64,000 nucleotides of DNA from Candidatus Planktophila sp. (GTDB lineage: Bacteria; Actinomycetota; Actinomycetes; Nanopelagicales; Nanopelagicaceae): contig JBBAMX010000008.1 of assembly GCA_040402335.1 (NCBI GenBank), positions 4,925 through 68,924 of the forward strand, given 5' to 3'. How positions within the stretch are numbered: the stretch's first letter is position 1; the number at the start of each line of letters is the position of its first letter. The notes below the pieces were generated by a model, which worked only from the letters and a program-made list of their open reading frames with translations, was not told where the DNA came from and ran no database searches. The translations under genes were made by a program, and so were the position numbers. Below, in pieces: positions 1-28,569 of the stretch.

Positions 1-739
1 TCTGGACTTTACTCAAGGTTTGTTTGCGAGTTGAACCCATTGACTGTGCGGCTTCAACCGGAGATTGATTGAGATTTCGAATTGCATGCGAAGTAATTCG
101 AATACAGATCGGAATTGCATAAATCATCGTCGCAATCGTTGCCGAGGCGGCTCCAATCATAAAAACAAGTGCGATCGGTGCCATGTAAACGAGCGTTGGT
201 AAAATCTGAGCTAAATCTAGAAATGGCGTCAGAACTTTCAAGGTTCGATCAGAGAGTCCGGCCCAAATACCTAAGGGGATTCCAATCGCTAATGAAAGAA
301 GTACTGCTGCCAATGTCATCGCTATGGAGTCCATAGTGAACTGCCACATTCCAAGTGCGCCACATCCAAGCAAAAGCGAGACTGAAAGCAAAGCGGTGCG
401 CCATGTACTTGTTGCAAATACTAAAAGAGCGACAAGCCCTACTACCCCGAGCCAACCGATTATTGGGATGACGGAGTTAGGTCCAGGAATTGCGATAAGC
501 GCTCGGATGGCCTGCACAAAGCCATCGATAGCGCCACGGATTGGATTAAAGAAATAGACAAAGGCCGTGCTTGTGGTGCGGTTACCGCGCATAGCCAGCG
601 CCCGATCTCCCACGAAAGATGTGAAGGCGGTATTTTCATAAGTAGCTATCTGTAAAGTATTTCTACCTTGGAAAACTCGGGCAGCGAGAATCCATACCGC
701 CACTGATCCCAAAAGCAGATAGGGCTTGCGAATATGCAT
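1..739 (-). CDS. proW: Glycine betaine/proline-type ABC transporter permease (partial, runs off left edge)
   Basis: Not in the ORF track. Manual translation from ATG 739 (TGATG overlap with the ATPase stop) gives MHIRKPY...hydrophobic helices...LAIGIPLGIWAG...LPTLVY...VEAAQSMGSTRKQTLSKVQ, which includes the EAA loop. Confidence 0.85.
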   Translation of the reverse strand, partial: MHIRKPYLLLGSVAVWILAARVFQGRNTLQIATYENTAFTSFVGDRALAMRGNRTTSTAFVYFFNPIRGAIDGFVQAIRALIAIPGPNSVIPIIGWLGVVGLVALLVFATSTWRTALLSVSLLLGCGALGMWQFTMDSIAMTLAAVLLSLAIGIPLGIWAGLSDRTLKVLTPFLDLAQILPTLVYMAPIALVFMIGAASATIATMIYAIPICIRITSHAIRNLNQSPVEAAQSMGSTRKQTLSKVQ

Positions 740-1767
740 CAACTGACCCCGGAGATGATGCGCAACACATCATCACTTGAGACAACTCCTAAGGCTTTAC
801 CGTTATCGCTCACCCTGATTGGGCGATGATCGGCAATAATCAAACTGCAGGCATCACGGATAATCATGTCGGCCGGAAGTTCAGGGCCATCTATAGCTTC
901 GCCAGATTTCGGTGCGCGGGCAAGATATCTAAGCGTTAACACATGAGATTTCGCGATATCGCGAACGAAGTTCGCTACATACTCATCGGCTGGATGAGCT
1001 ACTAAATCCTCAGGAGTTCCAATTTGAACAATGGCACCATCGCGCATGATCGCGATGCGATCTCCTACTTTTACCGCCTCAGATAGATCATGAGTAATAA
1101 AGACCATGGTCTTACCTAGTTCGTGGTGTAAGCGAATTACCTCTTGTTGCATATCGCGTCGAATCAGCGGATCAAGTGCGCTGAAGGGCTCGTCTAAGAA
1201 AAGAACCTGAGGGTCAACGGCGAGTGCTCTAGCTAAACCGACGCGTTGTTGCATGCCGCCCGAAAGCTGTTCGGGATATGCATTTGAATAGCCTTGTAGC
1301 CCCACGAGTTCGATTACTTCATTGGCACGTGCATGACGCTCGGTTTTTTTGACGCCATTGATTTCGAGTGAGTAAGCGATATTGTCGATTACTTTTCGAT
1401 GCGGAAGTAAACCAAAATGCTGAAATACCATGGAGAAACGGGTTTTACGAAGTTCGCGAAGGCGTGCATTATTTACCTTCAATATATCTTCGCCCTCAAA
1501 TGTTAATGAGCCGGCGGTTGGCTCGATGAGTCGGGTCATGCAGCGAACTAAAGTTGATTTTCCGGAGCCCGATAAACCCATGACAACAAAGACCTCGCCA
1601 GGGGCGACATCAAATGAGACATCACGAACTGCGATGGTATTTCCTGTTTGTGCCCGCAGCTCCGATCGCGTTAACTCAGCGAGCCGACTACCGATTACTG
1701 ATGCAGGCTCGGTACCAAAGACTTTCCAGAGGTTTTTAACGCAGATCATCGCCGCATTATCACTCAC
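739..1767 (-). CDS. proV: Quaternary-amine (betaine/proline/choline) ABC transporter ATP-binding protein
   Basis: Walker [41 protein letters not shown], and the ProV/OpuAA-type N-terminus (VKNLWKVFG). Confidence 0.9.
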
Positions 1768-1779: not shown

Positions 1780-3252
1780 TTACTGGTGATCTGGAAACCA
1801 TCCTGATCGACTAGGTGCATTGTTGGTCCAAATGTGTTTGATTTCAAGGTACTCACCCAGGCCATGCTCACCTAATTCGCGGCCAATGCCCGACTGCTTA
1901 TACCCACCCCACTCAGCGCCCGGGCGATATGGCCCAAAGTCATTGACCCAGATAGTTCCGTGGCGCAGGGCGCTTGCAACGCGTGCCGCTTTTTCACTAT
2001 CCCCGCTCCATAACCCGCCCGAGAGACCGAAGATCGTGTCATTTGCGATAGCGATCGCCTGCGCCTCGCTATCGAAGATCTCCACCGTCATGACCGGACC
2101 AAAGGACTCGTCTTGAACGCAGGACATGGCGCTCACACAGTTATCTAAAACCGTAGGCAGGTAGTACCAGCCCTGTGAGTGGACGGGATCGGCGCTGCGA
2201 GCGCCTCCGATTAAGAGCGTTGCGCCCTCTGCCAACGCTTTTTCAACGTAGCCGATAACGCTATTTAAATGGCTTTGGCTAATCAGTGGTCCACTCTGTG
2301 CGCTTTCATCGCCACCTAAGCGAATCTGACCTACGCGCCGGACAATCTCGGCCACCACTCGCCCATGAATTGAGCGTTCAACGATTAAACGAGTTCCGGC
2401 CGAGCAGACTTGACCTGAGTGAAGGAAGGCAGCGGTCACTGCGTTATCAATCGCCGAATCCAAATCTGCATCGGCGAAGATGATATGTGGATTTTTGCCA
2501 CCCAGCTCGAGTGCTAACTTCTTAACGGTATCGGCTGCGGCCCGCATGATCGTCTGACCAGTGAGTAAGCCCCCAGTAAAGGAGATTAAGTCGACTCGAG
2601 GATCGTTAATTAATGGAGTTCCAACAACTGCACCTGGTCCCAAAATTAAATTAGCAACACCCGGTGGCGTTCCAGCCTCTTCAATAATTGCAAACAAGGC
2701 GATTGCACTTTGAGGTGTTAACTCACTTGGTTTAACAATGAACGAGCAGCCAGCTACAAGTGCAGGAGCTATCTTCCAAGCGATCTGCAAGAGCGGATAG
2801 TTCCACGGTCCAATTAGGGCTGCAACACCCAACGGCTCACGGACGATTCTGCTCTTTACGTGCGCTAATCCAACGTCGAGGCTTCGTTCACTCTCTCTGC
2901 CACCTAGCGCTGCGAAGTGCCTAAAGGTTGCAACCACATCGGCTACGTCATAAATAGATTCAATTAAACGCTTACCAGTATCTTCACTCTCTTTGCTCGC
3001 AATCTCATCTGCGTCGCGCTCTAAGAGATCGGCGATTCGACCAACTAAGGCGCTTCGCTCGGTGAAACTCCACGCTGTAAAGATGCCGGAGTCAAAGCTG
3101 GCTCGCGCCGCAGCGATCGCATCGCCCACATCAGCGGGCGTGGCCTGTGAAACTACAGCAACGGTTCGCTGATCGTGTGGGCTATGAATCTCATGGGTTT
3201 GAGCATCCGATGCCGAGCGCCACTTGCCATCGATATAGAGTGTTGCAACCAT
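1780..3252 (-). CDS. NAD-dependent aldehyde dehydrogenase (betaine-aldehyde dehydrogenase-like)
   Basis: PWNYP, FTGG, catalytic LELGGKNP and GQVCSAG, ESFGPV. Substrate is inferred from context only. Confidence 0.85.
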   Translation of the reverse strand: MVATLYIDGKWRSASDAQTHEIHSPHDQRTVAVVSQATPADVGDAIAAARASFDSGIFTAWSFTERSALVGRIADLLERDADEIASKESEDTGKRLIESIYDVADVVATFRHFAALGGRESERSLDVGLAHVKSRIVREPLGVAALIGPWNYPLLQIAWKIAPALVAGCSFIVKPSELTPQSAIALFAIIEEAGTPPGVANLILGPGAVVGTPLINDPRVDLISFTGGLLTGQTIMRAAADTVKKLALELGGKNPHIIFADADLDSAIDNAVTAAFLHSGQVCSAGTRLIVERSIHGRVVAEIVRRVGQIRLGGDESAQSGPLISQSHLNSVIGYVEKALAEGATLLIGGARSADPVHSQGWYYLPTVLDNCVSAMSCVQDESFGPVMTVEIFDSEAQAIAIANDTIFGLSGGLWSGDSEKAARVASALRHGTIWVNDFGPYRPGAEWGGYKQSGIGRELGEHGLGEYLEIKHIWTNNAPSRSGWFPDHQ

Positions 3253-3259: not shown

Positions 3260-4696
3260 TTAATCTAGTTGGCTTTTACGCATTGCAACAAACTCATCTA
3301 GCTCTTTGAGCATCGAAGCATCGATCTCTGGGGCGACGTAATCCTCCAGTTTTTTCTTGTAGATATCGGCGGCACGCGCCTTCGTATCTTTGCCGCCCAA
3401 GCGGGTCCAACGCTCGAAGTTATCGCTATTTGTTAAGAAGGGACGGTAGAAACAGTCACGAAAACGCTCCATTGTGTGCGCCGCGCCTAAGAAGTGACCG
3501 CCATGGCCGACCTCTAGGTGGGCATCAAAGGCGAGTGATTCGATATTAAACTCAAGTGGAGTGAACTCGGTCATCAGTGATTGCAGAATTTCGATATCTA
3601 AAACAAACTTTTCATAACATGAGACCAGTCCACCTTCGAGCCAGCCGGCGGTATGCATCACCCAGTTTGTGCCAGATAAGAACGTCGGCATCATTGTCAT
3701 CATTGTTTGATATGCCGACTGGGCATCAACGGTCTGCGAAGAGTTTAAGCCGCCGCCGCCACGAAAGGGAAGGTTAAAGCTGCGTGCAATCTGACCGGTG
3801 CACAGCAGTCCAATTCCAGATTCTGGTGTTCCAAACTGTGGTGATCCTGACTGCATATCGATGTTGGAGAGAAAAGAACCGAAGACAATCGGGCATCCAG
3901 GATTAAGTGTCTGTGCCAGTGCAATTCCAGTTAAGGCCTCGGCGATCTGCTGCGCCAAAGTAGCTGGGATGGTGACCGGGCTCATCGCGCCCATAAGTAA
4001 AAATGGTGTGACAACAACTGGCTGGCCAGCTAAAACATATTCGCGCAATGAGTCCAACATGCGATCATCCCAGCGCAGTGGTGAGTTGCAGTTTACGAGA
4101 GAGATTAGCGCAGGAGTTTCAACGATAGCTTCGCGGCCACCGTGAATGATCTCCGCCATTCGAATTACATCTTTAGCGTTCTCGGCCGTAACCACGTTGC
4201 CCATAAAAAACTTATCGGTGAGGGTGGCGGCGGCATATGCCATATCCAAATGGCGTGAATCAAGCGAGAGATCATTCGGTTCGCAGACGACACCACCGAC
4301 GCTATCGAGTGCATCAAATGACTGCGCTAGCTTGCAAAAGTTTTCATAATCCTTAAATGTTGCATCGCGGCGAATATCGCCTTCGCGAACAAATGGTGGA
4401 CCGTAAACTCCACCAAAGACCATCGAGTTCCCACCGATATGAACATTGTTCTTGGGGTTGCGAGCGCGCAGATTAAACTCACTCGGAGCCAATGCGCACT
4501 GCTTTAATATCCAGTCGGGATCGAACTTAACGTTCTCACCTTCTACGCTCTGTCCGGCATCACGCAGGACATCGATCGCCCATGGTGACATGAACTCAAT
4601 GCCTATCTCAGAGACGATGCGTCGCCACCCTAGAGTTAAGGTCGCCATGGACTCTTGGCTCAAAATCTCGTATCGGGGCATTCGATTTTCAAACAT
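3260..4696 (-). CDS. mttB: MttB-superfamily (trimethylamine methyltransferase family) methyltransferase, pyrrolysine-free (MtgB-like)
   Basis: Family motifs GPPFV, CEPND, NCNSPLRWD, TPFLLMGAMSPVT, GTPES, HTAGWLEGGL, GPGGHF-like GHGGHFLG. No in-frame TAG. SD AAGGAG at 4703-4708. Confidence 0.9.
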   Translation of the reverse strand: MFENRMPRYEILSQESMATLTLGWRRIVSEIGIEFMSPWAIDVLRDAGQSVEGENVKFDPDWILKQCALAPSEFNLRARNPKNNVHIGGNSMVFGGVYGPPFVREGDIRRDATFKDYENFCKLAQSFDALDSVGGVVCEPNDLSLDSRHLDMAYAAATLTDKFFMGNVVTAENAKDVIRMAEIIHGGREAIVETPALISLVNCNSPLRWDDRMLDSLREYVLAGQPVVVTPFLLMGAMSPVTIPATLAQQIAEALTGIALAQTLNPGCPIVFGSFLSNIDMQSGSPQFGTPESGIGLLCTGQIARSFNLPFRGGGGLNSSQTVDAQSAYQTMMTMMPTFLSGTNWVMHTAGWLEGGLVSCYEKFVLDIEILQSLMTEFTPLEFNIESLAFDAHLEVGHGGHFLGAAHTMERFRDCFYRPFLTNSDNFERWTRLGGKDTKARAADIYKKKLEDYVAPEIDASMLKELDEFVAMRKSQLD

Positions 4697-4753
4697 TTAT
4701 CGCTCCTTCGCGCCTATTGACCATTGGACTTACATGAGAATACCCTTAGATAG

Positions 4754-4783
4754 TGGAACAGTGGTTCCATATTATGGAACAGT
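4754..4783. promoter_or_regulatory. Overlapping inverted repeats, putative IclR operator in the divergent mttB/iclR promoter
   Basis: TGGAAC-AGTG-GTTCCA (4754-4769) overlaps GTTCCAT-ATT-ATGGAAC (4764-4780). TGGAACAGT is directly repeated (4754, 4775). Confidence 0.7.
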
Positions 4784-4831
4784 CGTAAAAGCAGTTTCGG
4801 GGCCGATATCGAGCAGAGATGGGGTGTCTAT

Positions 4832-5593
4832 ATGAGCGAGTTAGTAAATGGAACCCAGGCGATAGATCGAGCCAGTGCACTCCTTATCAACGTCCTTGAA
4901 TCATCGACTCCCCCATTATTATCTGAACTATCTCGTACTCATGAGATTCCTAAGAGTACAACATCTCGAATGTTAAGCGCCCTCGAACGCCAAGGTCTTG
5001 TCCGCCGAGATCGCAACGGCGCCTTTATCGCCGGTGATGTTTTAACCCAGTTTGCTCGCTCGCAAAATCATGACTCCGTGCTGGTCGCGCGTATGCACTC
5101 AGTCTTGGAAAAATTAGCAATGAGTACAGGTGAGACGGCCAACTTAGCGGTCTCCAGCAATAGTCAGATGAAGTTAATCGATCAAGTAGATGGTCACTAT
5201 CTATTGGGAGCGACAAACTGGATTGGAAAAGTAATTCCATTTCACGCATCGGCCCTTGGCAAGGTTCTTCTTGCATATGGCGCGGCGACAATTCCACTTG
5301 GAAAATTAGAAAAACTTACTTCTAAGACAATTACTGCGCGCCCCCGCTTATTAAGCGAACTCGAGAGCGTAAGAAAAAAAGGCTACGCGATTATCGTTGA
5401 CGAGCTTGAGGAAGGGCTCGTGGCGGTAGCTGCACCTATTCGTGAAGATGATGGCCGAGTGGTTGGTGCGATTTCAATCTCTGGACCATCGCCACGATTA
5501 ACACAGCGAGATTTAGCAAAGATCGGCGACGTTATTATCCAAGAGATTCACTCACTCCAAAGCCTCAATGAAGGAAAGATAGGTGCAGCATGA
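4832..5593 (+). CDS. IclR-family transcriptional regulator
   Basis: N-terminal HTH (QAIDRA...LSELS...PKSTTSRMLSAL) and C-terminal HASALGKVLLA and GYAI..DELEEGL.AVAAPI motifs. Confidence 0.92.
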   Translation: MSELVNGTQAIDRASALLINVLESSTPPLLSELSRTHEIPKSTTSRMLSALERQGLVRRDRNGAFIAGDVLTQFARSQNHDSVLVARMHSVLEKLAMSTGETANLAVSSNSQMKLIDQVDGHYLLGATNWIGKVIPFHASALGKVLLAYGAATIPLGKLEKLTSKTITARPRLLSELESVRKKGYAIIVDELEEGLVAVAAPIREDDGRVVGAISISGPSPRLTQRDLAKIGDVIIQEIHSLQSLNEGKIGAA

Positions 5594-6255
5594 CTCACGA
5601 TGACATCATCAAGGCGCTCTTTGACGAGACGTTGGTTGGAAACGCTCCCGCGGTTTTAGCGTTAACTAATCAAGGTATCGCCGATGGCATGACTCCCAGC
5701 ACAATTCTCTTCGATGCGCTTATTCCTGCGCTAGAAGAGGTTGGTGCCCGCTTTGAACGCGGCGATTTCTTCGTCCCAGAGATGCTGATCTCTGGCAAGG
5801 CGATGTCTGGTGCGCTGGCTGTACTGCGACCACTGCTTGCCGAGACCGGGGCTGAGACCGTTGGAACGTATTTAATGGGAACCGTAAAGGGCGATGTTCA
5901 CGATATCGGCAAGAACCTTGTCAACATCATGCTCGAGGGTGCTGGCTTTAACGTGATCGATCTCGGCGTCCAAGTGGCTCCGGAAAAATTCATCGCCGGA
6001 ATCCTGGAACACAAGCCCGATATCGTGGGAATGTCGGCATTCCTCACAACAACAATGCCGATGTTTAAAGTCAATATTCATGAAATTACTAAGGCTGGCC
6101 TGCGGGATGAAGTCTTTATCATGGTTGGTGGTGCGCCGGTAACACAGGAGTATGCCGATGTAGTTGGCGCCGATGGCTTTGCCGCCGATGCTTCGACTGC
6201 CGTTCGCATCGCTAAAAATCTAATCGCCAAGAAACGCGCAACGGTCTCCGTATAA
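5590..6255 (+). CDS. Stand-alone corrinoid (B12-binding) protein, MttC/MtbC/MetH-cobalamin-domain type
   Basis: Cap domain (FVPEMLISGKAM) plus the B12 motif GTVKGDVHDIGKNLV, SAFLTTT and VGGAPVTQEYAD. Confidence 0.93.
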   Translation: MTHDDIIKALFDETLVGNAPAVLALTNQGIADGMTPSTILFDALIPALEEVGARFERGDFFVPEMLISGKAMSGALAVLRPLLAETGAETVGTYLMGTVKGDVHDIGKNLVNIMLEGAGFNVIDLGVQVAPEKFIAGILEHKPDIVGMSAFLTTTMPMFKVNIHEITKAGLRDEVFIMVGGAPVTQEYADVVGADGFAADASTAVRIAKNLIAKKRATVSV

Positions 6256-6260
6256 GCCCT

Positions 6261-6641
6261 ATGTTAAAAAAACTGCTCCCCTTTATTGAGCATGCGGTAA
6301 AAAAACCCGTATGGGACTGTCGTATGTGCGGTCAATGTGTTTTGCATTCAACGGGTATGACTTGTCCCATGACTTGTCCGAAGACTTTGCGCAATGGGCC
6401 CTGTGGTGGAGTGCGCGAGAATGGAAACTGCGAAGTAAAACCTGAGATGCAGTGCATCTGGGTCAAAGCTTATGATCGAACAATCTCTCTTCCCTTACCT
6501 AAAGTGTGGAAGGAGCATTACAACGATCTCCGCCCACCTGTTGATATGCAGCTCCAAGGTAGCTCTTCGTGGATTAATTTAGTGACTAAGCGCGATCAGC
6601 AAACTCCTGATGGATGGTCGATCGAAAGTAGCGAGCATTGA
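6261..6641 (+). CDS. MetV-like Cys-rich protein (methylene-THF reductase C-terminal domain family)
   Basis: Eight Cys in CRMCGQC..TCPMTCPKTLRNGPCGG...NCEV...QCIW, overlapping the metF start. Confidence 0.8.
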   Translation: MLKKLLPFIEHAVKKPVWDCRMCGQCVLHSTGMTCPMTCPKTLRNGPCGGVRENGNCEVKPEMQCIWVKAYDRTISLPLPKVWKEHYNDLRPPVDMQLQGSSSWINLVTKRDQQTPDGWSIESSEH

Positions 6642-7537
6642 TATCCGTGCTCAAAGAAAAACTAGAGAGTACTAAAGATTTAGTCTTTACCGCCGAGTTC
6701 CCATCGATAGATGGTGGTGGAATGGAGTTCGTTGAAAAAAACGCTGCCCGCCTAGCTCCCTGGTTTGATGCGGTAAATGCCACCGATAACGCCGCCGCTC
6801 ACGCCCACGCATCAAACACCACAACGGCTGTTGCAATGAAGATGCATGGCTTAGAACCCATTATGCAGATTGTCTGCCGAGATAAAAACCGTATTGCAGT
6901 CCAGTCCGACATGATGGGCGCGGCGCTTCATGGGATTCCAAATATCTCTCTCCTAACAGGTGATGATGTAACTGCAGGAGATGAGCCCGAAGCCCGGAGA
7001 GTCTTTGACATCGATAGCGCTCAAGCTATTAACATCGCCCGAATAATGACGACCGGTAGTTATCTATCGGGTCGAAAGATAAATCCCGCCCCCGATTTCT
7101 ACATTGGTGCCGTTGAAAATGCCTGTGCACCGCCCTTTGATTATCGAATAGCTCGGGCGTTAAAAAAATACCGAGCAGGTGCTAAGTTTTTACAACTTCA
7201 AATCTCTTACCATCCGGATCGCCTTGAGAGCTTTTGTAGGGGTGTGGCCGAAGTCGCCCCAGATTTAAAACTTATTCCAACGATTGTGCTTTTAAAGTCG
7301 GCAAAGTCGCTCAACTTCATCAATGATAAGGTTCCGGGAATCGACGTACCTTCCAATACCTTGGCCCGGATAAACGCCGCGAGTGATGAAAAAAGTGAGA
7401 TTTATAATTTAACGTTGGAGCTAGCCCAACACGCACTCTCACTCCCAGGTGTTCGTGGTTTGCATGTAACTGATTTTCGACATGATGACTCGCTCGATAC
7501 TTTAATGAACGACCTAGGCAGAACACCGAAACGATAG
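6638..7537 (+). CDS. metF: Methylenetetrahydrofolate reductase
   Basis: TAEF, AVNATDN, CRDKNRIAVQSD, LTGD, KKYRAGAKFLQLQ. Confidence 0.85.
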   Translation: MISVLKEKLESTKDLVFTAEFPSIDGGGMEFVEKNAARLAPWFDAVNATDNAAAHAHASNTTTAVAMKMHGLEPIMQIVCRDKNRIAVQSDMMGAALHGIPNISLLTGDDVTAGDEPEARRVFDIDSAQAINIARIMTTGSYLSGRKINPAPDFYIGAVENACAPPFDYRIARALKKYRAGAKFLQLQISYHPDRLESFCRGVAEVAPDLKLIPTIVLLKSAKSLNFINDKVPGIDVPSNTLARINAASDEKSEIYNLTLELAQHALSLPGVRGLHVTDFRHDDSLDTLMNDLGRTPKR

Positions 7538-7547
7538 GGGTACAACT

Positions 7548-8432
7548 TTGCATACAGTTCTCTCTTCTCCTGGCCAAACGGTCACGATCGGTCACGATCA
7601 GCCCTTTTGTATTATCGGAGAGCGCATCAACCCCACGGGACGGAAAAAATTCCAACTCCAACTGCGAGAAGGAAACCTGACCGCGATTGAAAAAGATGTA
7701 GCCGATCAAATTGCAGGTGGTGCAAACGTGCTCGATGTAAATATGGGTGTTCCACTCACCGATGAACCCGCACTTTTATCTAATGCGATTAAGTTAATTC
7801 AATCTATTACCGATATGCCGATCTGCATCGACTCCTCAGTTATCGAGGCGCTACAGGCTGGACTTGAGGCCTATCAAGGCAAGGCGCTCGTGAACAGTGT
7901 TACGGGCGAGGATGAGCGAATGGAGCTCGTTCTGCCGCTCATTAAAAAACATGGTGCGGCGATAATCGCCCTGCCTAACGATGAGACTGGAATTCCAGCG
8001 ACGGCCGCCGAGCGGATGATTATCACTGAAAAAATAGTTAGAGCCGTTGAAAAACACGGGATTGCCTTAGAGGATTTAGTAATCGATCCCTTAGCAATGA
8101 CCGTTGGCGCCGATCCAGAGGCCGTTAAAATTACCTTAGAGACAATCTATTTAATCCGTGAAAAATGGGGATTGAATATGACCCTAGGTGCATCAAATAT
8201 CTCATTCGGGCTTCCTTACCGCCACGCTCTTAACGCCGCATTCCTGCCGGCGGCGATGTCACATGGATTAACTAGTGCGGTCATGGATGCGCGGACACCG
8301 CTCATCGTTGAATCAGTGCGTGCAGCCGATCTGCTTCTTGGACTAGATCCGTGGGGAGCCACTTGGATTACCCGCTTTAGAGCGATGGAGGCGGCGAAGT
8401 TAGCCGCGGCTGTGAATGGAACTGGTGAATAG
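7548..8432 (+). CDS. Pterin-binding methyltetrahydrofolate:corrinoid methyltransferase (MetH pterin domain / AcsE-like)
   Basis: IIGERINPTGRKK, LDVNMG, ICIDSS, LVNSVTGE, IDPLAMTVG, GASNISFGLP. TTG start. Confidence 0.9.
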   Translation: MHTVLSSPGQTVTIGHDQPFCIIGERINPTGRKKFQLQLREGNLTAIEKDVADQIAGGANVLDVNMGVPLTDEPALLSNAIKLIQSITDMPICIDSSVIEALQAGLEAYQGKALVNSVTGEDERMELVLPLIKKHGAAIIALPNDETGIPATAAERMIITEKIVRAVEKHGIALEDLVIDPLAMTVGADPEAVKITLETIYLIREKWGLNMTLGASNISFGLPYRHALNAAFLPAAMSHGLTSAVMDARTPLIVESVRAADLLLGLDPWGATWITRFRAMEAAKLAAAVNGTGE

Positions 8433-10339
8433 CTATTAGTAAAAAAGAGCTGGATCCATCACTTGTTCCAAGCCACGACGGAACCGGTCGGGTTCGCCTT
8501 GCCTTTAGATCGCTTGAAAAAGATAACTCGGTCTCATCGCAAAAAACTATAACCGTACCTACAGGCGTTAGTGCATTTGATGCAGCATCCTGGAACGGTA
8601 TCGCAATCGATTCAACCTGCGGTGGTTATGGGACGTGTAAAAAATGTCGGATTAAAATAACCGATGGAGATATCCAGCCCTCTAAATTAGATTTTCGTGC
8701 CTTCACCGAGAGTGAGATTAAAGCCGGCTGGCGTTTAGCCTGTCTAGTGCGAACGAGTACCGACATCTCAATCGATGTACCCCCGCTTACAACTAGACCC
8801 AAGGCTGCGACCGTTGGAGTTGGCAGGCAGGTCATTCTGCGGCCAGCGGTTCAAAAGCGTTATGTTGAGTTAGAAGAGCCGACCTTGCACGATCAACGCA
8901 CCGATATCGTTCGCCTATTTGATGCGATCGATGATATCGAGGCAACGGCCTCACTTGCGGCGATACGCAACGTTCCCCGTGTACTTCGTGCTGCCAACTT
9001 TAAAGTTACGGCAGTCTTTGTCGATCAAGCCTTTATCGATCTCGAAGCCGGAGACACCACCGCGTTTCGATATGGAATCGCATACGATCTCGGAACAACC
9101 ACCGTCGTGGCAACGCTGCTAGATCTCAATACAGGAGCTCCACTTGCCGTAAAATCAATATTAAATAAGCAGCAACCATTTGGTGCCGACGTCATTACTC
9201 GAATCAGTGCCACCATGCTCGATCCAGCGGCCCTTGAAAAACTATCAAGCCTGGCACAAGAGACCCTGAATCAACTCACGCAAGAGGTCTGCATCGAAGC
9301 CGGTATAGATCCGCTTCACGTATATGAGATCGCTATCGCTGGAAATGCAACGATGAACCAGCTGCTACTTGGAATCGATCCCGAACCTCTAGGGGTAGCT
9401 CCCTTTATTATGGCGGCAGCCGACTTCCCCGATGTGGATGCGCGCGATATCGGAATAGCGATTCATCCGCGGGCAAAGGCGGTTATTTTGCCCTCACTTG
9501 GGGCATATGTTGGTGGAGATATTATCGCTGGCGCCCTTGCCTCGGGAATGGATCGCGATAAACGGCTACGTTTATTTATCGATGTCGGCACTAACTGTGA
9601 GATTGTTTTAGGCGATGGAGAAAAGATTTTAGCTACCGCCGCCCCAGCTGGCCCAGCCTTTGAAGCTGCAAGTATTAAATGTGGTGTACGCGCCGCCTCT
9701 GGTGCGATCGAGACGATCAAAATCGTTGATGGCCAGTTAATTATCGGTACGATCGACGATACGCCGGCGATTGGAATCTGTGGCTCGGGCTTAGTCGATG
9801 CCTGCGCATCTTTAGTCGGTATTGGTTTACTCGATCTCTCGGGCCGCTTTGTAAGCGATGAAACTGCCCGAGAGATTGCGCCAACTCTCGCCGATCGATT
9901 ACTTTTGCGTGAAGGTGAGCGGGTATTTGTTTTAACATGGAGCAAAGAGGTTGGTGATTTAAGCGACTGTGTCTTTTTAACCCAGCGCGATGTTCGTGAA
10001 CTTCAATTTGCAAAGGCAGCGATCGCAACGGGATGGGCCCTGCTGCTTGAAGAGTTTGGTGTCGCCGAAGATGAGATTGCGCAGGTCTTACTTGCCGGAT
10101 CCTTTGGCTCCTACCTCTCCCCCGCCTCGGCTATCAAGATTGGGTTAGTACCTAAGTTATCGGTTATGCGAATCATGTCGGCCGGAAACGTTGCTGGTGA
10201 GGGCGCAAAGATGGTTTTACTTTCGGCGCAAGAGCGACACGGTGCTACTGCGCTGCTCAATGAGATCTCCTACGTCGAACTCTCTGATCGTGCCGATTTC
10301 AACGATAAATTTGTAGATCGATTAGCCTTCCCGGCATGA
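8429..10339 (+). CDS. RamA/RACo-type ATP-dependent corrinoid reductive activator (ASKHA) with N-terminal [2Fe-2S] domain
   Basis: The frame is open from 8429 (after in-frame TGA 8426-8428). It encodes STCGGYGTCKKC...GWRLAC upstream of the track's GTG 8747, followed by YDLGTTT, GADVITRI, DVGTNCE, AGPAFE, GICGSG and LAGSFG. The exact start is uncertain (non-canonical). Confidence 0.88.
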   Translation: MAISKKELDPSLVPSHDGTGRVRLAFRSLEKDNSVSSQKTITVPTGVSAFDAASWNGIAIDSTCGGYGTCKKCRIKITDGDIQPSKLDFRAFTESEIKAGWRLACLVRTSTDISIDVPPLTTRPKAATVGVGRQVILRPAVQKRYVELEEPTLHDQRTDIVRLFDAIDDIEATASLAAIRNVPRVLRAANFKVTAVFVDQAFIDLEAGDTTAFRYGIAYDLGTTTVVATLLDLNTGAPLAVKSILNKQQPFGADVITRISATMLDPAALEKLSSLAQETLNQLTQEVCIEAGIDPLHVYEIAIAGNATMNQLLLGIDPEPLGVAPFIMAAADFPDVDARDIGIAIHPRAKAVILPSLGAYVGGDIIAGALASGMDRDKRLRLFIDVGTNCEIVLGDGEKILATAAPAGPAFEAASIKCGVRAASGAIETIKIVDGQLIIGTIDDTPAIGICGSGLVDACASLVGIGLLDLSGRFVSDETAREIAPTLADRLLLREGERVFVLTWSKEVGDLSDCVFLTQRDVRELQFAKAAIATGWALLLEEFGVAEDEIAQVLLAGSFGSYLSPASAIKIGLVPKLSVMRIMSAGNVAGEGAKMVLLSAQERHGATALLNEISYVELSDRADFNDKFVDRLAFPA

Positions 10340-10920
10340 ACATCGGCATCGTGGCCTGCGGTGCGCTAGCCACACACATTAACGAGATTGCGATAGCTAA
10401 TAATCTTGACCTAACGATCTATCCGCTGCCGCCGTTGTTACATAATCGCCCTGAAAAAATCGCTGGCGAAGTCGACTCACTTCTACATGAGATAAAAGCA
10501 AAACATATTAAATGCGCCGTGGCCTACGCCGATTGCGGAACATACGGAGCCCTCGATGCGGTTATTCAAGCCCATGGTGTCGCCCGACTTCGTGGAAATC
10601 ACTGTTATGACATCTTTGCCGGAGCGGCCGAGATAGAGCGGTTAATGGAGCAAGATGCAGGTACGTACTTCCTAACGGATTTTCTCGTAAAATCCTTCCA
10701 TCGAAGCGTCATCGTTGAGCTTGGATTAGATAGATATCCCTACCTTCGCGATGACTACTTCAAAAACTATACGCGAGTGATCTGGTTGGCTCAGAGCCCA
10801 AGCCCCGAACTGGAAGCGGCCGCAGTCTCAGCGGCGGCTGAGATTGGCCTGCCACTTGAGATTCACAACGCCGGCGCTACCGGTTTAACTGCCCAGATTC
10901 TCGAACTAATTTCGCACTAA
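10336..10920 (+). CDS. DUF1638-family protein (associated with corrinoid reactivation)
   Basis: IVACGAL, LHNRPEKI, YADCGTYG, GNHCYDIFAG, GTYFLTDF, YFKNYTR. ATGA overlap with the activator gene. Confidence 0.75.
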   Translation: MNIGIVACGALATHINEIAIANNLDLTIYPLPPLLHNRPEKIAGEVDSLLHEIKAKHIKCAVAYADCGTYGALDAVIQAHGVARLRGNHCYDIFAGAAEIERLMEQDAGTYFLTDFLVKSFHRSVIVELGLDRYPYLRDDYFKNYTRVIWLAQSPSPELEAAAVSAAAEIGLPLEIHNAGATGLTAQILELISH

Positions 10921-13899
10921 TAAAATATCAAGCGCCTTTAATACTATGGGTGAGAGATCAGACTTACTCACATCAGTAAGCAGGCGATCAATCATTGCCG
11001 GGGTCCAGAATTGAACAATGTGGTGGGCGGTCTGTATCTCAGCTGCATCACCGGCTGGAATATTTACGGCGATCTGATTTGCCATTCGCACGATTGAATC
11101 TAACTGGGGATCATCCCCAATATGAGAATGAATCAGATCGCCAGGGGCTTTGTGCGTTGGTGAGATCTCAACGGCCGTAACTTTGTATTCAGGACAGTTG
11201 GTAGCCCAATCTGAGAATTCTGTGGTGATTACGTTAGCCCCGCTTTCTGGAAAGTGAAAGGTCGTATAAACCACACCGGCCGGCACTTCATCGCTTATGT
11301 GCGCCTTCAAAACCGTTTCACCGACGCGACTAGCGAGCTTGACCCAACTACCTTCAGTGATTCCACGAAGGAGAGCATCGGATTCATGGATATCTAAGAT
11401 GTCCTCGGTATGCCAAATATTATTTGCCGTCCTACGTGTCTGGGCGCCGACGTTGTACTGACTTAAAACCCGCCCCGTTGTCAGTAAGAGTGGATACTGC
11501 CGTGTCGCCTTTTCATCGGTGGGAACATACTCGGTGCGCATAAAGCGACCCTCACCCCGAACAAACTCATCGACATGCATCGTTGGTGTGCCTTCAGGAT
11601 GTGCCTCGTTGCATGGCCATTGAATACTTCCCAACTCATCCAACTTTGCAAATGAGACTCCAGCAAAAGTCGGCGTAGTAGCCGCTATCTCAGCCATGAT
11701 TGCCGCACCGTTCTCATAGGCCATCGGATAACCCATCGCCGTAGCTAAATCACATGTGACTTCATACTCGCTCTTACCCGTTTTAGATTTCATAACAGGA
11801 CGTACTCGGTTGATGCGCCGTTCGGCGTTTGTAAAAGTTCCATCTTTTTCTAGAAAAGATGTGCCAGGTAAGAAGACGTGGGCAAACTTTGAGGTCTCAT
11901 TAAGGAAGAGATCTTGGACAATCACCATATCCATCGCCCGCAGCGCGGCATGTACGTGCGAGATATTGGGATCGGACTGTGCGATATCTTCGCCTTGAAC
12001 ATAGAGACCTCGATACTCGCCGGCGATTGCAGCATCAAACATATTTGGAATTCGCATTCCAGGTTCGGCCTGTAGCTCTATCCCCCAAGCATCATTAAAT
12101 ATCGCTCGCGTCTGTGGATTTGATATATGGCGGTAGCCCGAAAGCTCATGCGGGAATGAGCCCATATCGCACGAGCCCTGAACATTGTTCTGCCCACGCA
12201 GTGGATTTACGCCGACGCCTTTGCGACCAATATTTCCAGTGGCCATCGCAAGGTTTGCTATTCCCATCACCATCGTTGAGCCCTGGCTATGCTCGGTGAC
12301 GCCTAATCCATAGTAAATTGAGCCATTTTTAGCGTTAGCAAAGAGGTGGGCAGCGGCTCGAATCTGCGCCGCTGGAACCCGTGATGATTGCTCCATCGCC
12401 TCTGGCGAGTTTTGCGGCAGTTTAATAAAACGCTCCCACTCTTTAAATGAGGCTTCATCACAGCGCGCTTCCACAAACTCACGCTTTATTAAGCCATCGG
12501 TTGCGATCACGTGGGCTAGTGCGTTGATAACGGCTACGTTGGTGCCGGGCATTAATTGAAGATGATGGGCTGCGACGACCCCGGGTGTTCGAACCAGCGC
12601 AATAACTCGCGGATCGATGACAATTAAGACAGCGCCCTTTCGAATCGCCTGCTTCATACGTGAGGCAAAAACTGGGTGAGCCGATGTTGGATTCGCGCCG
12701 ATGAGCATAATCACATCGCTGTGCTCTACCGACTCGAAATCCTGAGTACCTGCCGATGTTCCAAATGTCTGGCCGAGGCCATAGCCAGTAGGTGAGTGAC
12801 ACACTCGCGCACAGGTATCCACATTATTATTTCTAAAGGCGGCGCGCACCATTTTTTGGACAACAAATACCTCTTCATTAGTGCATCTCGATGAAGTAAT
12901 TCCACCGATCGCATTAACGCCGTTCTCTTTTTGAATCTTCTTTAAGCCATCGGCGGCAAAAGCAATCGCCTCGGCCCATGAGACCTCTCTCCAATCATCG
13001 CTAATCGTATTTCTAATCAAAGGCTTTGTGATCCGATCGCTGTGAGTGGCATATCCATAAGCAAAGCGCCCCTTTACACAGGAGTGCCCCTCATTAGCGC
13101 CACCAGATTTAAGCGGAACCATCCGAACAAGCTCTTCTCCGCGCATTTCGGCTTTGAATGAACAGCCAACGCCGCAGTAAGCACAGGTAGTAATGATCGA
13201 CGATGTCGGTGCTCCGATTGTAAGCAAACTCTTTTCAGTCAGTGCACCCGTTGGACAGGCTTGAACACAGGCACCACATGAAACACACTCACTCTCTATG
13301 AATGATGTACCCGATGAGGAGACTCGAGCTTTGAACCCACGGTTTTCAATAGTCAATGCAAAGGTTCCCTGAACTTCATCACATGCTCGCACGCATCGAT
13401 TACAGACAATGCACTCAGTTGAATCAAAGGTAAAGTATGGATTGCTCTCATCTTTCGCTAAATCCAAATGTGTATCGCCACCGGCATATCTGCTGGTCTC
13501 GATTCCAAGTTTTTTAGCGACGCCATGGAGTTCGCACTCATCCCCTGTTGCACATTTTGCGGGATGATCCGATAAGTAAAGCTCCATAACGCCTTTACGG
13601 ATTCGATCAATCTTTTCCGAACGAGTAGTAACCTTCATTCCCTCGGCAACGGGAGTAGTGCAAGAGGATGGCGTCCCGTTTCGTGCATCGACTTCAATGA
13701 TGCATAGCCGACATGAGCCAAAAGCCTTTAAGGAATCGGTGGAGCAGAGCTTTGGAATCTCAATGCCTGCTTCAAGGGCGGCGCGCATGATCGAAGTTGC
13801 AGCGGCGACAAGAATCGGACGACCATCGATCTCAAGGCTCACCTGCGCTAGCTTTGCACTAGCCGGGGTGCCGAAATCTGGCTCGTAAATCATCGTCAT
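10906..13899 (-). CDS. fdsA: NAD-dependent Mo formate dehydrogenase alpha subunit with C-terminally fused FdsD domain
   Basis: [2Fe-2S] GSCRLC, [4Fe-4S] CIVCNRC/CVSCGAC, TCAYCGVGC, active-site CARVCHS (Cys, not Sec), PLRGQNNVQG, EYKVTAV, then an FdsD-like RMANQIA...HIVQFW. Confidence 0.95.
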   Translation of the reverse strand: MTMIYEPDFGTPASAKLAQVSLEIDGRPILVAAATSIMRAALEAGIEIPKLCSTDSLKAFGSCRLCIIEVDARNGTPSSCTTPVAEGMKVTTRSEKIDRIRKGVMELYLSDHPAKCATGDECELHGVAKKLGIETSRYAGGDTHLDLAKDESNPYFTFDSTECIVCNRCVRACDEVQGTFALTIENRGFKARVSSSGTSFIESECVSCGACVQACPTGALTEKSLLTIGAPTSSIITTCAYCGVGCSFKAEMRGEELVRMVPLKSGGANEGHSCVKGRFAYGYATHSDRITKPLIRNTISDDWREVSWAEAIAFAADGLKKIQKENGVNAIGGITSSRCTNEEVFVVQKMVRAAFRNNNVDTCARVCHSPTGYGLGQTFGTSAGTQDFESVEHSDVIMLIGANPTSAHPVFASRMKQAIRKGAVLIVIDPRVIALVRTPGVVAAHHLQLMPGTNVAVINALAHVIATDGLIKREFVEARCDEASFKEWERFIKLPQNSPEAMEQSSRVPAAQIRAAAHLFANAKNGSIYYGLGVTEHSQGSTMVMGIANLAMATGNIGRKGVGVNPLRGQNNVQGSCDMGSFPHELSGYRHISNPQTRAIFNDAWGIELQAEPGMRIPNMFDAAIAGEYRGLYVQGEDIAQSDPNISHVHAALRAMDMVIVQDLFLNETSKFAHVFLPGTSFLEKDGTFTNAERRINRVRPVMKSKTGKSEYEVTCDLATAMGYPMAYENGAAIMAEIAATTPTFAGVSFAKLDELGSIQWPCNEAHPEGTPTMHVDEFVRGEGRFMRTEYVPTDEKATRQYPLLLTTGRVLSQYNVGAQTRRTANNIWHTEDILDIHESDALLRGITEGSWVKLASRVGETVLKAHISDEVPAGVVYTTFHFPESGANVITTEFSDWATNCPEYKVTAVEISPTHKAPGDLIHSHIGDDPQLDSIVRMANQIAVNIPAGDAAEIQTAHHIVQFWTPAMIDRLLTDVSKSDLSPIVLKALDILLVRN

Positions 13900-15419
13900 T
13901 TCGCTGCTCCTGTGAAATCGGATGGGAAGTTAATCATCGCACTCTTTACCGGTAATGGTGTGAGTCCACCCATCGCACAGAGGGAGCCCTCGCTCATTAC
14001 CTCACATAGATCAAGTAGGAGCCGCTTATTTTCATCGACTTCAACGCCTCGAATTATTAAATCGATTGTTTCAGCCCCGCGAGTGGAGCCGATACGACAG
14101 GGCGTGCATTTGCCGCAGGATTCAATGGCACAAAACTCCATCGCAAACTTGGCTTGTACCGCTAAATCAACGCTCTCATCAAAGACCACGATGCCGCCAT
14201 GGCCTAACATACCCCCGGCTGCAATCAGGGATTCATAGTCCATCGAAACGCCAAACTGCGCAGTAGAGAAATAGGCGCCAAGTGGGCCACCGACCTGGAC
14301 CGCTCGCACAGCTCGCGCACTCAAGCTACCTCCACCATATGTATTGACTAAATCCTCGAGAGTTACACCGAAGGCTTTTTCAACGATTCCACCGCGCGCA
14401 ATATTTCCAGCTAATTGAAAGACCTGAGTTCCGAGTGAGCGCCCTACTCCCCGCTCTTTATATGCTTGAGATCCCTGGGCCAAAATCATTGGAACTGTAG
14501 CCAGAGTGAGCACGTTATTTATAACCGTTGGTTGGCCAAAGAGGCCTTCAACTGCTGGCAGTGGAGGCTTAGCTCGAACTACTCCACGCTTTCCTTCAAT
14601 GCTCTCTAACATTGCAGTCTCTTCGCCACATACATAAGAGCCGGCACCGATTCGAATCGAGATATTAAAGCTATGCGTTGTGCCGAGCACGCTTTCGCCC
14701 AACAAGTTACTCGCTCGAGCGATATCGATCGCTTTCTGCATGGTTGTAATTGCTGCAGGATACTCAGAGCGAATATAAACAATGCCGAGCGTTGCTCCAA
14801 CTGTAATCCCTGCAATTGTCATGCCTTCGATCAAAGTAAATGGATCACCCTCCATTAACATACGGTCGGCAAACGTTCCGCTATCTCCCTCATCGGCGTT
14901 ACAACAAATATATTTCTGAACTGCAGGAGTTTGTAATACGGTCCGCCACTTAATGCCAGCTGGAAAGCCTGCTCCGCCTCGTCCACGAAGGCCCGAATCG
15001 CTCAGTTCATCAATTATCTCTTGCGCGCTAAGTGTGAGCGCCCGCTTTAATCCAACTAAGCCACCGTGTTCGCGATAATCATCAAGGGATAGTGGATCGA
15101 TAATCCCAACGCGAGCAAAAGTGATTCGATCTTGCGAAGCTAGCCATTCAATCCCATCGGTTGCACCAAGTGAAAGCCGATGTGGGCCACCTGAAAGAAA
15201 ATCGGCTTCAAAGAGTGAGCCGACATCGTTGGGCATGACGGGGCCATATGCGATGCGCCCACTAGGAGTCTGCACTTCTACAAGGGTCTCAAGCCATAAC
15301 GCACCCCGCGAACCATTTCTTACAATCTCTACCGCTGGATCTATCCGCGCGATTTCGCGGGCGACTTCATCTGCACCGATCGAGACCGCGGCGCTATCAA
15401 TCGGCACATAGACTCTCAT
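13896..15419 (-). CDS. fdsB: Formate dehydrogenase beta (NuoF-like, FMN/NAD-binding) subunit
   Basis: GLRGRGGAGFP, CNADEGDSGTFADR, GAGSYVCGEET, SCGKCTPCRIG, SLCAMG. Confidence 0.95.
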   Translation of the reverse strand: MRVYVPIDSAAVSIGADEVAREIARIDPAVEIVRNGSRGALWLETLVEVQTPSGRIAYGPVMPNDVGSLFEADFLSGGPHRLSLGATDGIEWLASQDRITFARVGIIDPLSLDDYREHGGLVGLKRALTLSAQEIIDELSDSGLRGRGGAGFPAGIKWRTVLQTPAVQKYICCNADEGDSGTFADRMLMEGDPFTLIEGMTIAGITVGATLGIVYIRSEYPAAITTMQKAIDIARASNLLGESVLGTTHSFNISIRIGAGSYVCGEETAMLESIEGKRGVVRAKPPLPAVEGLFGQPTVINNVLTLATVPMILAQGSQAYKERGVGRSLGTQVFQLAGNIARGGIVEKAFGVTLEDLVNTYGGGSLSARAVRAVQVGGPLGAYFSTAQFGVSMDYESLIAAGGMLGHGGIVVFDESVDLAVQAKFAMEFCAIESCGKCTPCRIGSTRGAETIDLIIRGVEVDENKRLLLDLCEVMSEGSLCAMGGLTPLPVKSAMINFPSDFTGAAK

Positions 15420-15841
15420 CGGCGGGCCTGAGTTATTTTTTCAACTGTTGCGCGTCCAATGAGCTGGCCATCGACCATGACGGCGGGACCAAGTGCGCAG
15501 TTACCAAAGCAGTATGCGTCATGGCTCTCTTGCCCATAGATTGCTTTAATCTCTCGCTCCAAACTCCGTCCACCAACTGCCTGACACGCTTCGGCCACGC
15601 AGATTGAGATCTGATGCTGCGCTGGGGGCGTCGTACGCAGATCGTGATAGAAAGTTAGAACGCCATGAACATCTGCTCTAGTTTTATTAAAAAAATTTGC
15701 AATCAGTACAACCGACGCTTTATCCACGTAACCAAACTCTTTCTGCATCGCCTGCAGAGCCATTAATACCGGGCCTTTTTCTTCACGCAAAATCGCAAGG
15801 AGCTCTAAGGCCCGCACTTGTGACCACGGTGGATACTTCAT
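15416..15841 (-). CDS. fdsG: Formate dehydrogenase gamma (NuoE-like, [2Fe-2S]) subunit
   Basis: RADVHGVLTFYHD, ICVAEACQA, YCFGNCALGPA. Confidence 0.92.
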   Translation of the reverse strand: MKYPPWSQVRALELLAILREEKGPVLMALQAMQKEFGYVDKASVVLIANFFNKTRADVHGVLTFYHDLRTTPPAQHQISICVAEACQAVGGRSLEREIKAIYGQESHDAYCFGNCALGPAVMVDGQLIGRATVEKITQARR

Positions 15842-17507: not shown

Positions 17508-18467
17508 TTATCCCTTAGCTTGACGTATGGCGCTAGTAAGCGCAGGTATTATTTGGTGTAAGTCACCGATAATTGCATAGTCGGCATAACGTAAAATTGG
17601 AGCTTCGGGATCGGTATTGATAACAACTATCGTCTTACTATTTTTCATGCCCGCTATATGTTGCATCGCACCTGAAATTCCAGCGGCGATATATAAATCT
17701 GGAGCAACCTTGGTGCCGGTCTGCCCCACTTGTTCGGCATGAGGTCGCCAACCAGAGCTGGTAACTACCCGAGAGCAGCCCACAGCGCCTCCGAGCAGGG
17801 CGGCTAAATCCTCTAGATTACCAAAGCCGTCGGCGCCACCTACTCCTCGGCCACCTGAAACAATCACTTTGGCATCGTTAAGTGTGACTCCAGCCTTAGT
17901 TTGAGCAGAGCCCCGACTAAGAATCTTTACAACATAATCTTGCGGCTCTAATGCGGGTGTAAAGACTGCAACAGTTGCCGCTGCTCCACTTACTGATATC
18001 GCTTCAAATGAGAAATTGTTGACCGTTGCAATTAATAACTCTTCATGAACATTGGCCGATTCAATTAAATTACCGGCCCAACGTGCTCGAAGAACTTGGT
18101 GTGGATGCCCCAAAGCGATCTCTAAACACTCCGCCGCCATCGGTACATCTAAAAATGCAGCCAGGTGGGCTAACTGTTCATTGCCTCGTGGGGTTCCAGC
18201 GGCTAGAACGGCGGCTGGTGAGAGTTTTTCTACTAAATCTTTAAGCGCACGGCCCGATGCCATTGGTGTGTAATCGGTAATCAAATCATGCTGTGCAACA
18301 TGTAAAACCTTTGCACCAAATTCGCCGATGAGGCCCGCTAAAGCTGCACCCTGGCTACCAATGACTACCGCCTCAATATCTTGGCCCAAGCCACGAGCGG
18401 CAGTGAGAGCTCTGAGTGAGAGTGAATCTATCTCTCCTCGGTCGTGATCGATGAGAACTAAAATCAT
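17508..18467 (-). CDS. etfA: Electron transfer flavoprotein alpha subunit
   Basis: [36 protein letters not shown]. Confidence 0.93.
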
Positions 18468-26665: not shown

Positions 26666-26683
26666 GTCACTAGGATACTGACT

Positions 26684-28272: not shown

Positions 28273-28569
28273 ATGAGCGAGTATCAGATAATGCGTTGGC
28301 GTGAAATTCCATCAATGGTGATCGCACGTGCCGGTGAGACAACAATAAAAGTGATGCTTGAATCACGCTTTCAAGAAGCTATAGATGAGGCCGCTATGCG
28401 ATTAGGCGCAATCGATGCCGATGCATATACCTCGGGCTGGAACCGCGGAGCCTGGATCGAATCAAGTGAGTCTCCAGATGTGCTTGCACCCCGCATAGCT
28501 AGCGAGTTAGAGGCAGAGTTGAGCGTTGAAAAACTAGAAGAGTTATTAAACAATTTAGGTGAAAAATAA
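28273..28569 (+). CDS. Small 'virulence factor' domain (PF13769-like) protein of unknown function
   Basis: WREIPSMV, RFQEAIDEAAM, DAYTSGW. Stop overlaps the next ATG. Confidence 0.7.
   Translation: MSEYQIMRWREIPSMVIARAGETTIKVMLESRFQEAIDEAAMRLGAIDADAYTSGWNRGAWIESSESPDVLAPRIASELEAELSVEKLEELLNNLGEK

Follow-up and report, generated by a model that had tools for sequence, protein, structure and literature searches.

A predicted glycine betaine:corrinoid methyltransferase beside choline and one-carbon genes in a freshwater acI actinobacterium

We analysed a 64,000-nt stretch of DNA (positions 4,925 to 68,924 of contig JBBAMX010000008.1, assembly GCA_040402335.1; hereafter the window) around a gene at 3260–4696 that encodes a pyrrolysine (Pyl)-free member of the MttB methyltransferase superfamily. 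The host is a freshwater acI actinobacterium (Nanopelagicaceae), probably of the genus Candidatus Planktophila; the closest homologues of the protein, 77–97% identical to it, are labelled Ca. Planktophila, Nanopelagicaceae or similar. The gene is very probably mtgB, and its product would serve an aerobic system of the MtgBCD(E) type as the glycine betaine (GB):corrinoid methyltransferase. The first-pass annotation had left the substrate open, and had not connected the gene with the divergent corrinoid/methyl-tetrahydrofolate (THF)/activase operon or with the nearby dimethylglycine and one-carbon (C1) oxidation genes. Considered together, these genes point to GB as the substrate.

Genes around mtgB

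The choline/betaine operon on the mtgB strand contains the following genes. C8 denotes the contig that carries the window.

3260–4696, minus strand: mtgB, Pyl-free MttB-superfamily methyltransferase, predicted GB:corrinoid methyltransferase (PF06253, AlphaFold2 (AF2) model, site signature)
1780–3252, minus strand: betB-like betaine aldehyde dehydrogenase (ALDH; PF00171), after a 7-nt gap from mtgB
739–1767, minus strand: proV-type ABC ATPase with a C-terminal CBS domain (TIGR01186 proV, 351.7 bits, above the cut-off of 326.6), after a 12-nt gap from the ALDH gene
2–742, minus strand: 5' part of a fused double ProW permease, overlapping proV by 4 nt and running off the window
contig C8:959–2605, strand of the mtgB operon: choline dehydrogenase BetA (TIGR01810, 804.3 bits, equivalog cut-off 732.1)
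contig C8:109–969, minus strand: fdhD, formate dehydrogenase maturation gene, last in the choline/GB operon and overlapping betA by 11 nt

The first-pass annotation had placed the methyltransferase gene at the head of a same-strand mttB-aldh-proV-proW string, and these neighbours were confirmed with the gaps and overlap given above. In the 4.9 kb examined to the left of the window edge, the order continued with the fused ProW, an OpuAC-family binding protein encoded at contig C8:2686–3651, BetA and FdhD. The whole ProW has 643 amino acids (contig C8:3735–5666, minus strand) and two BPD_transp_1 domains; one of its halves was closer to a choline-type permease model, the other to a ProW-type model. 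The earlier statement that the window holds no choline dehydrogenase was literally true, yet the string that starts with mtgB does include BetA, 2.3 kb outside the window on its left side. The top NCBIfam match of the ALDH was the betaine aldehyde dehydrogenase (BADH) model TIGR01804 (532 bits, under the cut-off of 668.6), and its 22 best solved relatives in the PDB were almost all BADHs, led by Staphylococcus aureus BetB (4MPB, 487 bits). These relatives, together with the BetA that completes the operon, support the earlier suggestion that the ALDH handles choline-derived betaine aldehyde. The fdhD gene closes the choline/GB operon, and thus ties methyl-group oxidation to the uptake operon. 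Promoter and terminator scans gave site counts at chance level, none of them informative, and an Rfam scan of the window returned only two tRNAs, with no riboswitch near the operons.

The operon on the opposite strand diverges from mtgB as follows.

4697–4831, no strand: divergent promoter region, 135 bp, with a palindrome TGGAAC-N4-GTTCCA and a third half-site, as read from the sequence
4832–5593, plus strand: IclR-family regulator (PF09339, PF01614)
5590–6255, plus strand: mtgC, corrinoid protein with the DxHxxG motif (DVHDIG; PF02607, PF02310)
6261–6641, plus strand: metV-like Cys-rich partner of methylene-THF reductase (MTHFR; PF12225)
6638–7537, plus strand: metF, MetF2-like methylene-THF reductase (PF02219)
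7548–8432, plus strand: mtgD, methyl-THF:corrinoid methyltransferase (PF00809; NF005719, 303.9 bits, above the cut-off of 259)
8429–10339, plus strand: RamA/RACo-type reductive activase (RACo linker, middle and C-terminal domains)
10336–10920, plus strand: DUF1638 protein (PF07796)

MtgC, MtgD, the MetF2-type MTHFR, the RamA-type activase and DUF1638 were thus all found at 5590–10920, divergent from mtgB. In published systems, DUF1638 is accessory to corrinoid reactivation (PMC12478193). The top NCBIfam match of MtgC was the GB-specific corrinoid protein MtgC (NF047996, 196 bits, below the cut-off). The listed GTG start of the activase leaves out its [2Fe-2S] ferredoxin part (8429–8746, CGGYGTCKKC), which lies upstream in the same frame; ATG, GTG and TTG are absent from this segment, and the candidate starts are ATA at 8429, ATT at 8435 and CTG at 8450. 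In the region between mtgB and iclR, the palindrome TGGAACAGTGGTTCCA and the third half-site ATGGAAC lie at 4737–4783 and may form an IclR operator.

The genes for methyl and C1 oxidation and for a methionine synthase module follow in the window.

10906–15841, minus strand: NAD-type formate dehydrogenase, comprising FdsA with a fused FdsD and NuoF-like and NuoE-like subunits
15841–17505, minus strand: formate-tetrahydrofolate ligase Fhs (PF01268, 867 bits)
17508–19222, minus strand: electron transfer flavoprotein (ETF), alpha and beta
19222–21741, minus strand: dimethylglycine/sarcosine dehydrogenase-type flavoenzyme with a THF-binding GcvT domain (DAO, FAO_M, GCV_T, GCV_T_C)
28273–29459, plus strand: PF13769 small protein, then an MtgE-like homocysteine S-methyltransferase (PF02574 and PF13769 matches)

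Molybdenum-cofactor genes follow the dimethylglycine-dehydrogenase-type gene, and a paralogue of this enzyme (33% identical) is encoded elsewhere in the genome (contig C3:42712–45138). The MtgE-like gene itself (28569–29459) scored 227.8 bits with PF02574, and its top NCBIfam match was of the BHMT type (NF005718, 277 bits, under the cut-off of 338). The PF13769 "virulence factor" protein stands directly before the MtgE-like gene here (28273–28569) and directly before metV in the Sinorhizobium meliloti mtg cluster (9102–9404 of the record), a recurrent and unexplained companion of mtg systems. A type I phosphodiesterase-family gene (29460–30257) comes directly after the MtgE-like gene, and a calcineurin-like phosphoesterase gene (26660–28240) lies upstream. 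It is pure speculation that these two enzymes could free choline from phosphocholine-type esters. Genes for the catabolism of carnitine or proline betaine did not turn up in the window.

The MtgB protein and its predicted glycine betaine site

The mtgB open reading frame (ORF) has an ATG start and encodes 478 amino acids with no internal stop, in agreement with the earlier report of an uninterrupted frame lacking an amber codon. The protein matched PF06253 (MTTB) over its full length (601.6 bits, cut-off 25; profile positions 25–499 of 500). NCBIfam has no MtgB model, and the sole match of the protein there was sub-threshold, to the Pyl-type MttB equivalog TIGR02369 (251.4 bits, under the cut-off of 525). 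The sequence was 42% identical to a close proxy of Desulfitobacterium hafniense MtgB, 43% identical to the S. meliloti protein of PDB entry 4YYC, and 24% identical to MttB. The AF2 model has high confidence (predicted local distance difference test score 96.5) and the TIM-barrel fold of MtgB and MttB. Superposed on the GB-bound MtgB structure 9YCE, it gave a template modelling (TM) score of 0.97 and a root-mean-square deviation of 1.2–1.4 Å; the other TM scores were 0.97 (2QNE), 0.95 (4YYC) and about 0.92 (7XCL). MtgB is the sole MttB homologue of the host genome (1.43 Mb, 99.5% complete).

The segment NLPFRGGGGLNSSQ corresponds to residues 308–321 of MtgB. In the HMMER alignment, Leu317 within it lies opposite the Pyl (X, chain position 334) of Methanosarcina barkeri MttB (PDB 7XCL). 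The first-pass annotation had proposed Leu at the Pyl position, and this proved right because X334 of 7XCL aligns with Leu317.

The GB site of D. hafniense MtgB has been established by mutagenesis and by the GB-bound crystal structure 9YCE (Picking et al., JBC 2026, PMC13080624). There, Y97 and F356 hold the trimethylammonium group, while R312 and H348 hold the carboxylate. In MtcB, MtpB, MthB and MtyB, R312 is kept and H348 partly so, and the aromatic pair is not kept (PMC13080624). We fixed the offset in residue numbering on the positions of R312, H348, F356 and Y97 in the alignment with 9YCE. Of the four residues that bind GB, three are present in the protein described here: Y98 (equivalent to Y97), R312 and H348. 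Together with L317, W352 and G356, they form a six-site signature, YRLHWG. This signature was invariant in all 121 acI-clade homologues, which are 77–100% conserved.

Positions 352 and 356 showed a family-wide pairing. Among 101 non-acI family representatives, W352 was paired with Gly, Ala or Ser at 356 in 33 of 34 clusters, and an aliphatic residue at 352 with Phe, Tyr or Trp at 356 in 38 of 50; this pattern tracks one deep split of the tree, so that it amounts to essentially one evolutionary event. An argument that 352 and 356 are i and i+4 neighbours on one helix was dropped, as the AF2 model shows a bridge at 352–353 and a short turn at 354–356.

Family tree, genomic context and distribution

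The family survey aligned full-length sequences of three kinds: 150 cluster representatives (clustering at 50% identity), acI relatives, and proxies for the MtgB of D. hafniense. A single search with a degenerate nucleotide version of one peptide from D. hafniense MtgB had returned three Bacillota metagenome-assembled genomes (MAGs) in place of D. hafniense itself; a MAG ORF (5023–6456) that scored 894 bits against 2QNE served as proxy. The tree, built from 107 sequences (cluster representatives and proxies), left out MtpB, MtcB, MtyB and MthB of Eubacterium limosum, MtgB of A. woodii and M. vulcani, MtgB1 of Phaeobacter inhibens, and SPO2108 and SPO2134 of Ruegeria pomeroyi. It resolved two superclades, with a split support of 99. 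Superclade 1, in which position 352 is aliphatic and position 356 aromatic, contained the D. hafniense proxies and a cluster named "glycine betaine--corrinoid protein Co-methyltransferase" by NCBI. Superclade 2, with Trp352 and a small residue at 356, included the host MtgB. An aromatic residue occupied position 97 in 9 of the 34 clusters of the Trp352 superclade. The non-acI clusters nearest to MtgB were P0125 and P0126, one of which has Gln for His348. A phylogeny with the anaerobic enzymes had been proposed in the first-pass annotation; the tree built here with proxies and cluster representatives placed the host MtgB apart from the D. hafniense group. Since the deepest split separates the host MtgB from that group, such a phylogeny would probably have left the substrate undecided.

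Genomic context offered another anchor. The S. meliloti chromosome, present under a record mislabelled as a plasmid, encodes the MttB-family protein of PDB entry 4YYC (1190 bits), whose gene is divergent from genes for a cobalamin-binding protein, DUF1638, PF13769, MetV, MetF, a methyl-THF methyltransferase, an ASKHA activase and bmt. This is the MtgBCDE cluster described by Mausz et al., and plasmid p1 of Paracoccus methylovorus has the same divergent arrangement. Both proteins carry YRLHWG at the six sites, identical to the host MtgB. Thus, in three lineages (acI, S. meliloti and Paracoccus), the MttB homologue attached to corrinoid/THF genes carries this signature. Paralogues located elsewhere, on S. 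meliloti pSymA and on a Leisingera plasmid, have the signature AR-HWG, with Ala at position 97. The Leisingera paralogue adjoins PrpD and an ALDH. The pSymA paralogue (11896–13431) lies beside genes for a GlxA regulator, aminopeptidase P, isochorismatase, an ABC transporter and a mandelate-racemase-family protein, a context that suggests a proline-betaine-type substrate. Tyr97/Trp352/Gly356 could serve as a simple and testable sequence rule for calling GB-specific members of the aerobic MttB branch.

Among 201 Nanopelagicales genomes, MtgB occurred in 48, representing 5 of 13 genera and including 25 of the 94 other sampled genomes of its own genus. Every one of these 48 had a BetA orthologue (at least 73% identity) at a distance of about 7 kb from mtgB. 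BetA orthologues were absent from the MtgB-negative genomes, one of which had only a BetA paralogue of 38%. Of the 48, 46 also had an MtgC orthologue, which no MtgB-negative genome had, and 45 had an MtgE orthologue. The B12-domain match in 85 of the MtgB-negative genomes lay inside an ORF of about 1170 amino acids, corresponding to classical MetH. MtgC and MetH occurred together in only seven MtgB-positive genomes. As relatives within Nanopelagicales are not independent, all these counts are to be read as a description of linkage, with no weight as statistics.

In the 99.5%-complete host genome, neither MetE nor full-length MetH was found; only three split MetH modules were detected, all inside the window. 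CobS was not found in the genome either, so that the host must import cobalamin. A cobalamin riboswitch candidate was located on another contig (C20:16815–16988; 31.1 bits, just below the Rfam gathering score of 31.5). Downstream of it are genes for a 183-aa protein without a Pfam match and then a CbiQ/EcfT-like protein, and these two may form an energy-coupling factor (ECF) cobalamin importer. The genome also encodes an MmuM-type homocysteine S-methyltransferase (contig C5:198–1061, minus strand; NF007020, 310 bits, cut-off 215), which offers a second, B12-independent route to methionine from S-methylmethionine or S-adenosylmethionine.

Proposed pathway, alternatives and significance

The genes of the pathway were observed, and we infer the flow through them to be as follows. 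Choline and/or GB would be imported by the ProV/ProW-ProW/OpuAC transporter, and BetA and the BetB-like ALDH would convert choline to GB. The TIM-barrel pocket of MtgB would bind GB via Tyr98, Arg312, His348 and probably Trp352, and one N-methyl group would be moved to Co(I) of MtgC, leaving dimethylglycine. MtgD would pass the methyl group from MtgC to THF, and MetV/MetF would oxidise CH3-THF to CH2-THF, a direction deduced from the context. Fhs and the Fds formate dehydrogenase would then carry the carbon to CO2. The remaining two methyl groups would be stripped by ETF together with two enzymes, the dimethylglycine-dehydrogenase-type one encoded nearby and its paralogue on contig C3, while the RamA-type activase and DUF1638 would re-reduce oxidised corrinoid. 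With MetH and MetE both absent, MtgC, MtgD and the MtgE-like protein probably also serve as a methionine synthase, by analogy with R. pomeroyi. Both GB catabolism and methionine synthesis would then depend on imported cobalamin.

Several observations weigh against assigning GB to this enzyme. The fourth GB-binding residue, F356, is replaced by Gly356, with Trp at position 352; the family-wide pairing suggests that Trp352 may stand in for F356. The protein is only 42–43% identical to either structural reference, and it falls in a different superclade (support 99) from the biochemically proven D. hafniense-type MtgB. For the host MtgB, as for any other member of the W352/G356 clade, a GB role is a prediction. 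The nearest non-acI clusters, P0125 and P0126 (55–56% identity), have Gln or Ser for Tyr97 and may act on another substrate. The ALDH, MtgC and MtgE matches all lie under NCBI family-specific cut-offs. In addition, we infer co-transcription of the mtgB string from gene spacing only.

Some of these points would also suit the strongest alternative, which we nevertheless consider improbable: that MtgB demethylates another quaternary amine (proline betaine, carnitine, gamma-butyrobetaine, choline or phosphocholine) and that BetA and BetB make GB as an osmolyte only. The loss of F356, the deviation of the nearest non-acI clusters at position 97 and the separation from D. hafniense MtgB in the tree favour this explanation, as does the ease with which specificity shifts between close paralogues, MtcB and MtyB being 53% identical (PMC8604678). 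However, the genome has no second MttB homologue, MtgB and BetA were perfectly linked (48 of 48 genomes), and mtgB lies beside dimethylglycine-dehydrogenase-type and C1-oxidation genes. The six-site signature matches the homologues in the mtgC/D clusters of S. meliloti and Paracoccus, while paralogues elsewhere have Ala97, and MtcB, MtpB, MthB and MtyB lack the aromatic pair (PMC13080624). The window likewise showed no catabolic genes for carnitine or proline betaine.

A mainly anabolic role is less probable still. In this case, the GB methyl group would pass via MtgB, MtgC and the MtgE-like protein to methionine, as a B12-dependent betaine:homocysteine route. The absence of MetH and MetE from the genome and the occurrence of MtgE with MtgB in 45 of 48 genomes are in line with this, and a shared-MtgC model has been shown genetically in R. 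pomeroyi (PMC12478193). On the other hand, MetV/MetF, Fhs, a complete formate dehydrogenase with molybdenum-cofactor genes, the dimethylglycine-dehydrogenase-type enzyme and ETF serve methyl oxidation and not methionine synthesis, and the MmuM-type methyltransferase is also present. Catabolic and anabolic roles are compatible, so that the latter would be an added function to GB catabolism by MtgB and not a true alternative. Finally, a trimethylamine (TMA) methyltransferase without Pyl, or a non-catalytic relic, is most unlikely: homologues are named "trimethylamine methyltransferase family protein" in databases, but the TMA reading was rejected on the sub-cut-off TIGR02369 score and on Leu317 at the Pyl334 position, identity to MttB is low, the carboxylate-binding Arg312 and His348 are kept, and the gene is intact and conserved with an invariant site signature across its 121 homologues.

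The proposed GB system is the aerobic MtgBCD(E) system described with RamA, DUF1638 and MetF2 in R. pomeroyi DSS-3 (Mausz et al., PNAS 2025, PMC12478193), for which an mtgB1 knock-out in P. inhibens gives genetic support to MtgB1 (bioRxiv 10.64898/2025.12.19.695462). The shared features are MtgB, a stand-alone MtgC, a pterin-binding MtgD, a MetF2-type MTHFR, a RamA-type activase, DUF1638 and an MtgE module, as well as the lack of MetH and MetE and the proximity of dimethylglycine and C1-oxidation genes. The gene order matches that of the S. meliloti and Paracoccus mtg clusters. Unlike the marine proteobacteria R. pomeroyi and P. inhibens, the host is a streamlined freshwater actinobacterium; its system is packed closely around a single divergent promoter and includes an IclR regulator, its mtgB is joined to the choline operon betB-proVWX-betA-fdhD, and it lacks CobS and must import cobalamin.

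MtgB of D. hafniense Y51 (2QNE, 9YCE; Ticak et al. 2014; PMC13080624) shares with the host protein the fold (TM 0.97), Y97/R312/H348, Leu at the Pyl position, about 42% identity (through the proxy), and a cognate corrinoid protein, methyl-THF methyltransferase and activase. The host enzyme differs in having Gly for F356 and Trp for Ile352 and in belonging to the other superclade; the host is aerobic, and its corrinoid protein is probably shared with methionine synthesis. The S. meliloti 4YYC protein, deposited with an "unknown ligand", agrees in its 43% identity, in YRLHWG and in the divergent mtgC, DUF1638, metV, metF, mtgD, ramA and bmt/mtgE, but is longer by about 45 residues at its N-terminus, and its cluster is not joined to betA/betB. 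With M. barkeri MttB (7XCL), the host protein shares the superfamily and the TIM-barrel fold (TM about 0.92), whereas it is only 24% identical, has no UAG/Pyl (Leu317), carries the carboxylate-binding Arg and His, and scores below the TIGR02369 cut-off.

The system has been known since 2025 from marine bacteria, and Mausz et al. already noted mtgC reads from Actinomycetota (PMC12478193); what is new here is the host. The present analysis adds modestly to this: completion of the operon past the window, the Tyr97/Trp352/Gly356 residue rule, the replacement of MetH across Nanopelagicales, and cobalamin auxotrophy. Our literature search found no paper pairing Planktophila with MttB. A 2025 genomic survey of cultured Nanopelagicales discussed formate dehydrogenase and C1 genes and never mentioned betaine, so the pathway feeding the C1 genes seems to have gone unremarked there. 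We also put forward a more specific proposal, tentatively and at somewhat less than even chances. In acI bacteria that lack MetH and MetE and are auxotrophic for cobalamin, a single MtgC charged with imported B12 would be the hub for both the sole de novo methionine synthase and the oxidation of choline/GB methyl groups. The GB pocket would be an alternative build, with Trp352 over Gly356 instead of Ile352/Phe356, and Tyr97 would separate GB-specific members from paralogues with other substrates.

The acI lineage (Nanopelagicales) comprises the most abundant lake bacterioplankton. About one quarter of the sampled species carry the island, which would allow them to use choline and GB as a source of energy, nitrogen and methyl groups. 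In the host genome, the island would also make GB catabolism and methionine synthesis depend on a cobalamin that the host cannot make. This connects B12 cross-feeding with the turnover of osmolytes and the separation of niches between Planktophila species that occur together, in a concrete way that can be tested. For the family, the aerobic branch of the MttB superfamily is large and mostly unassigned, and the Tyr97/Trp352/Gly356 pattern offers a rule to test for calling its GB members.

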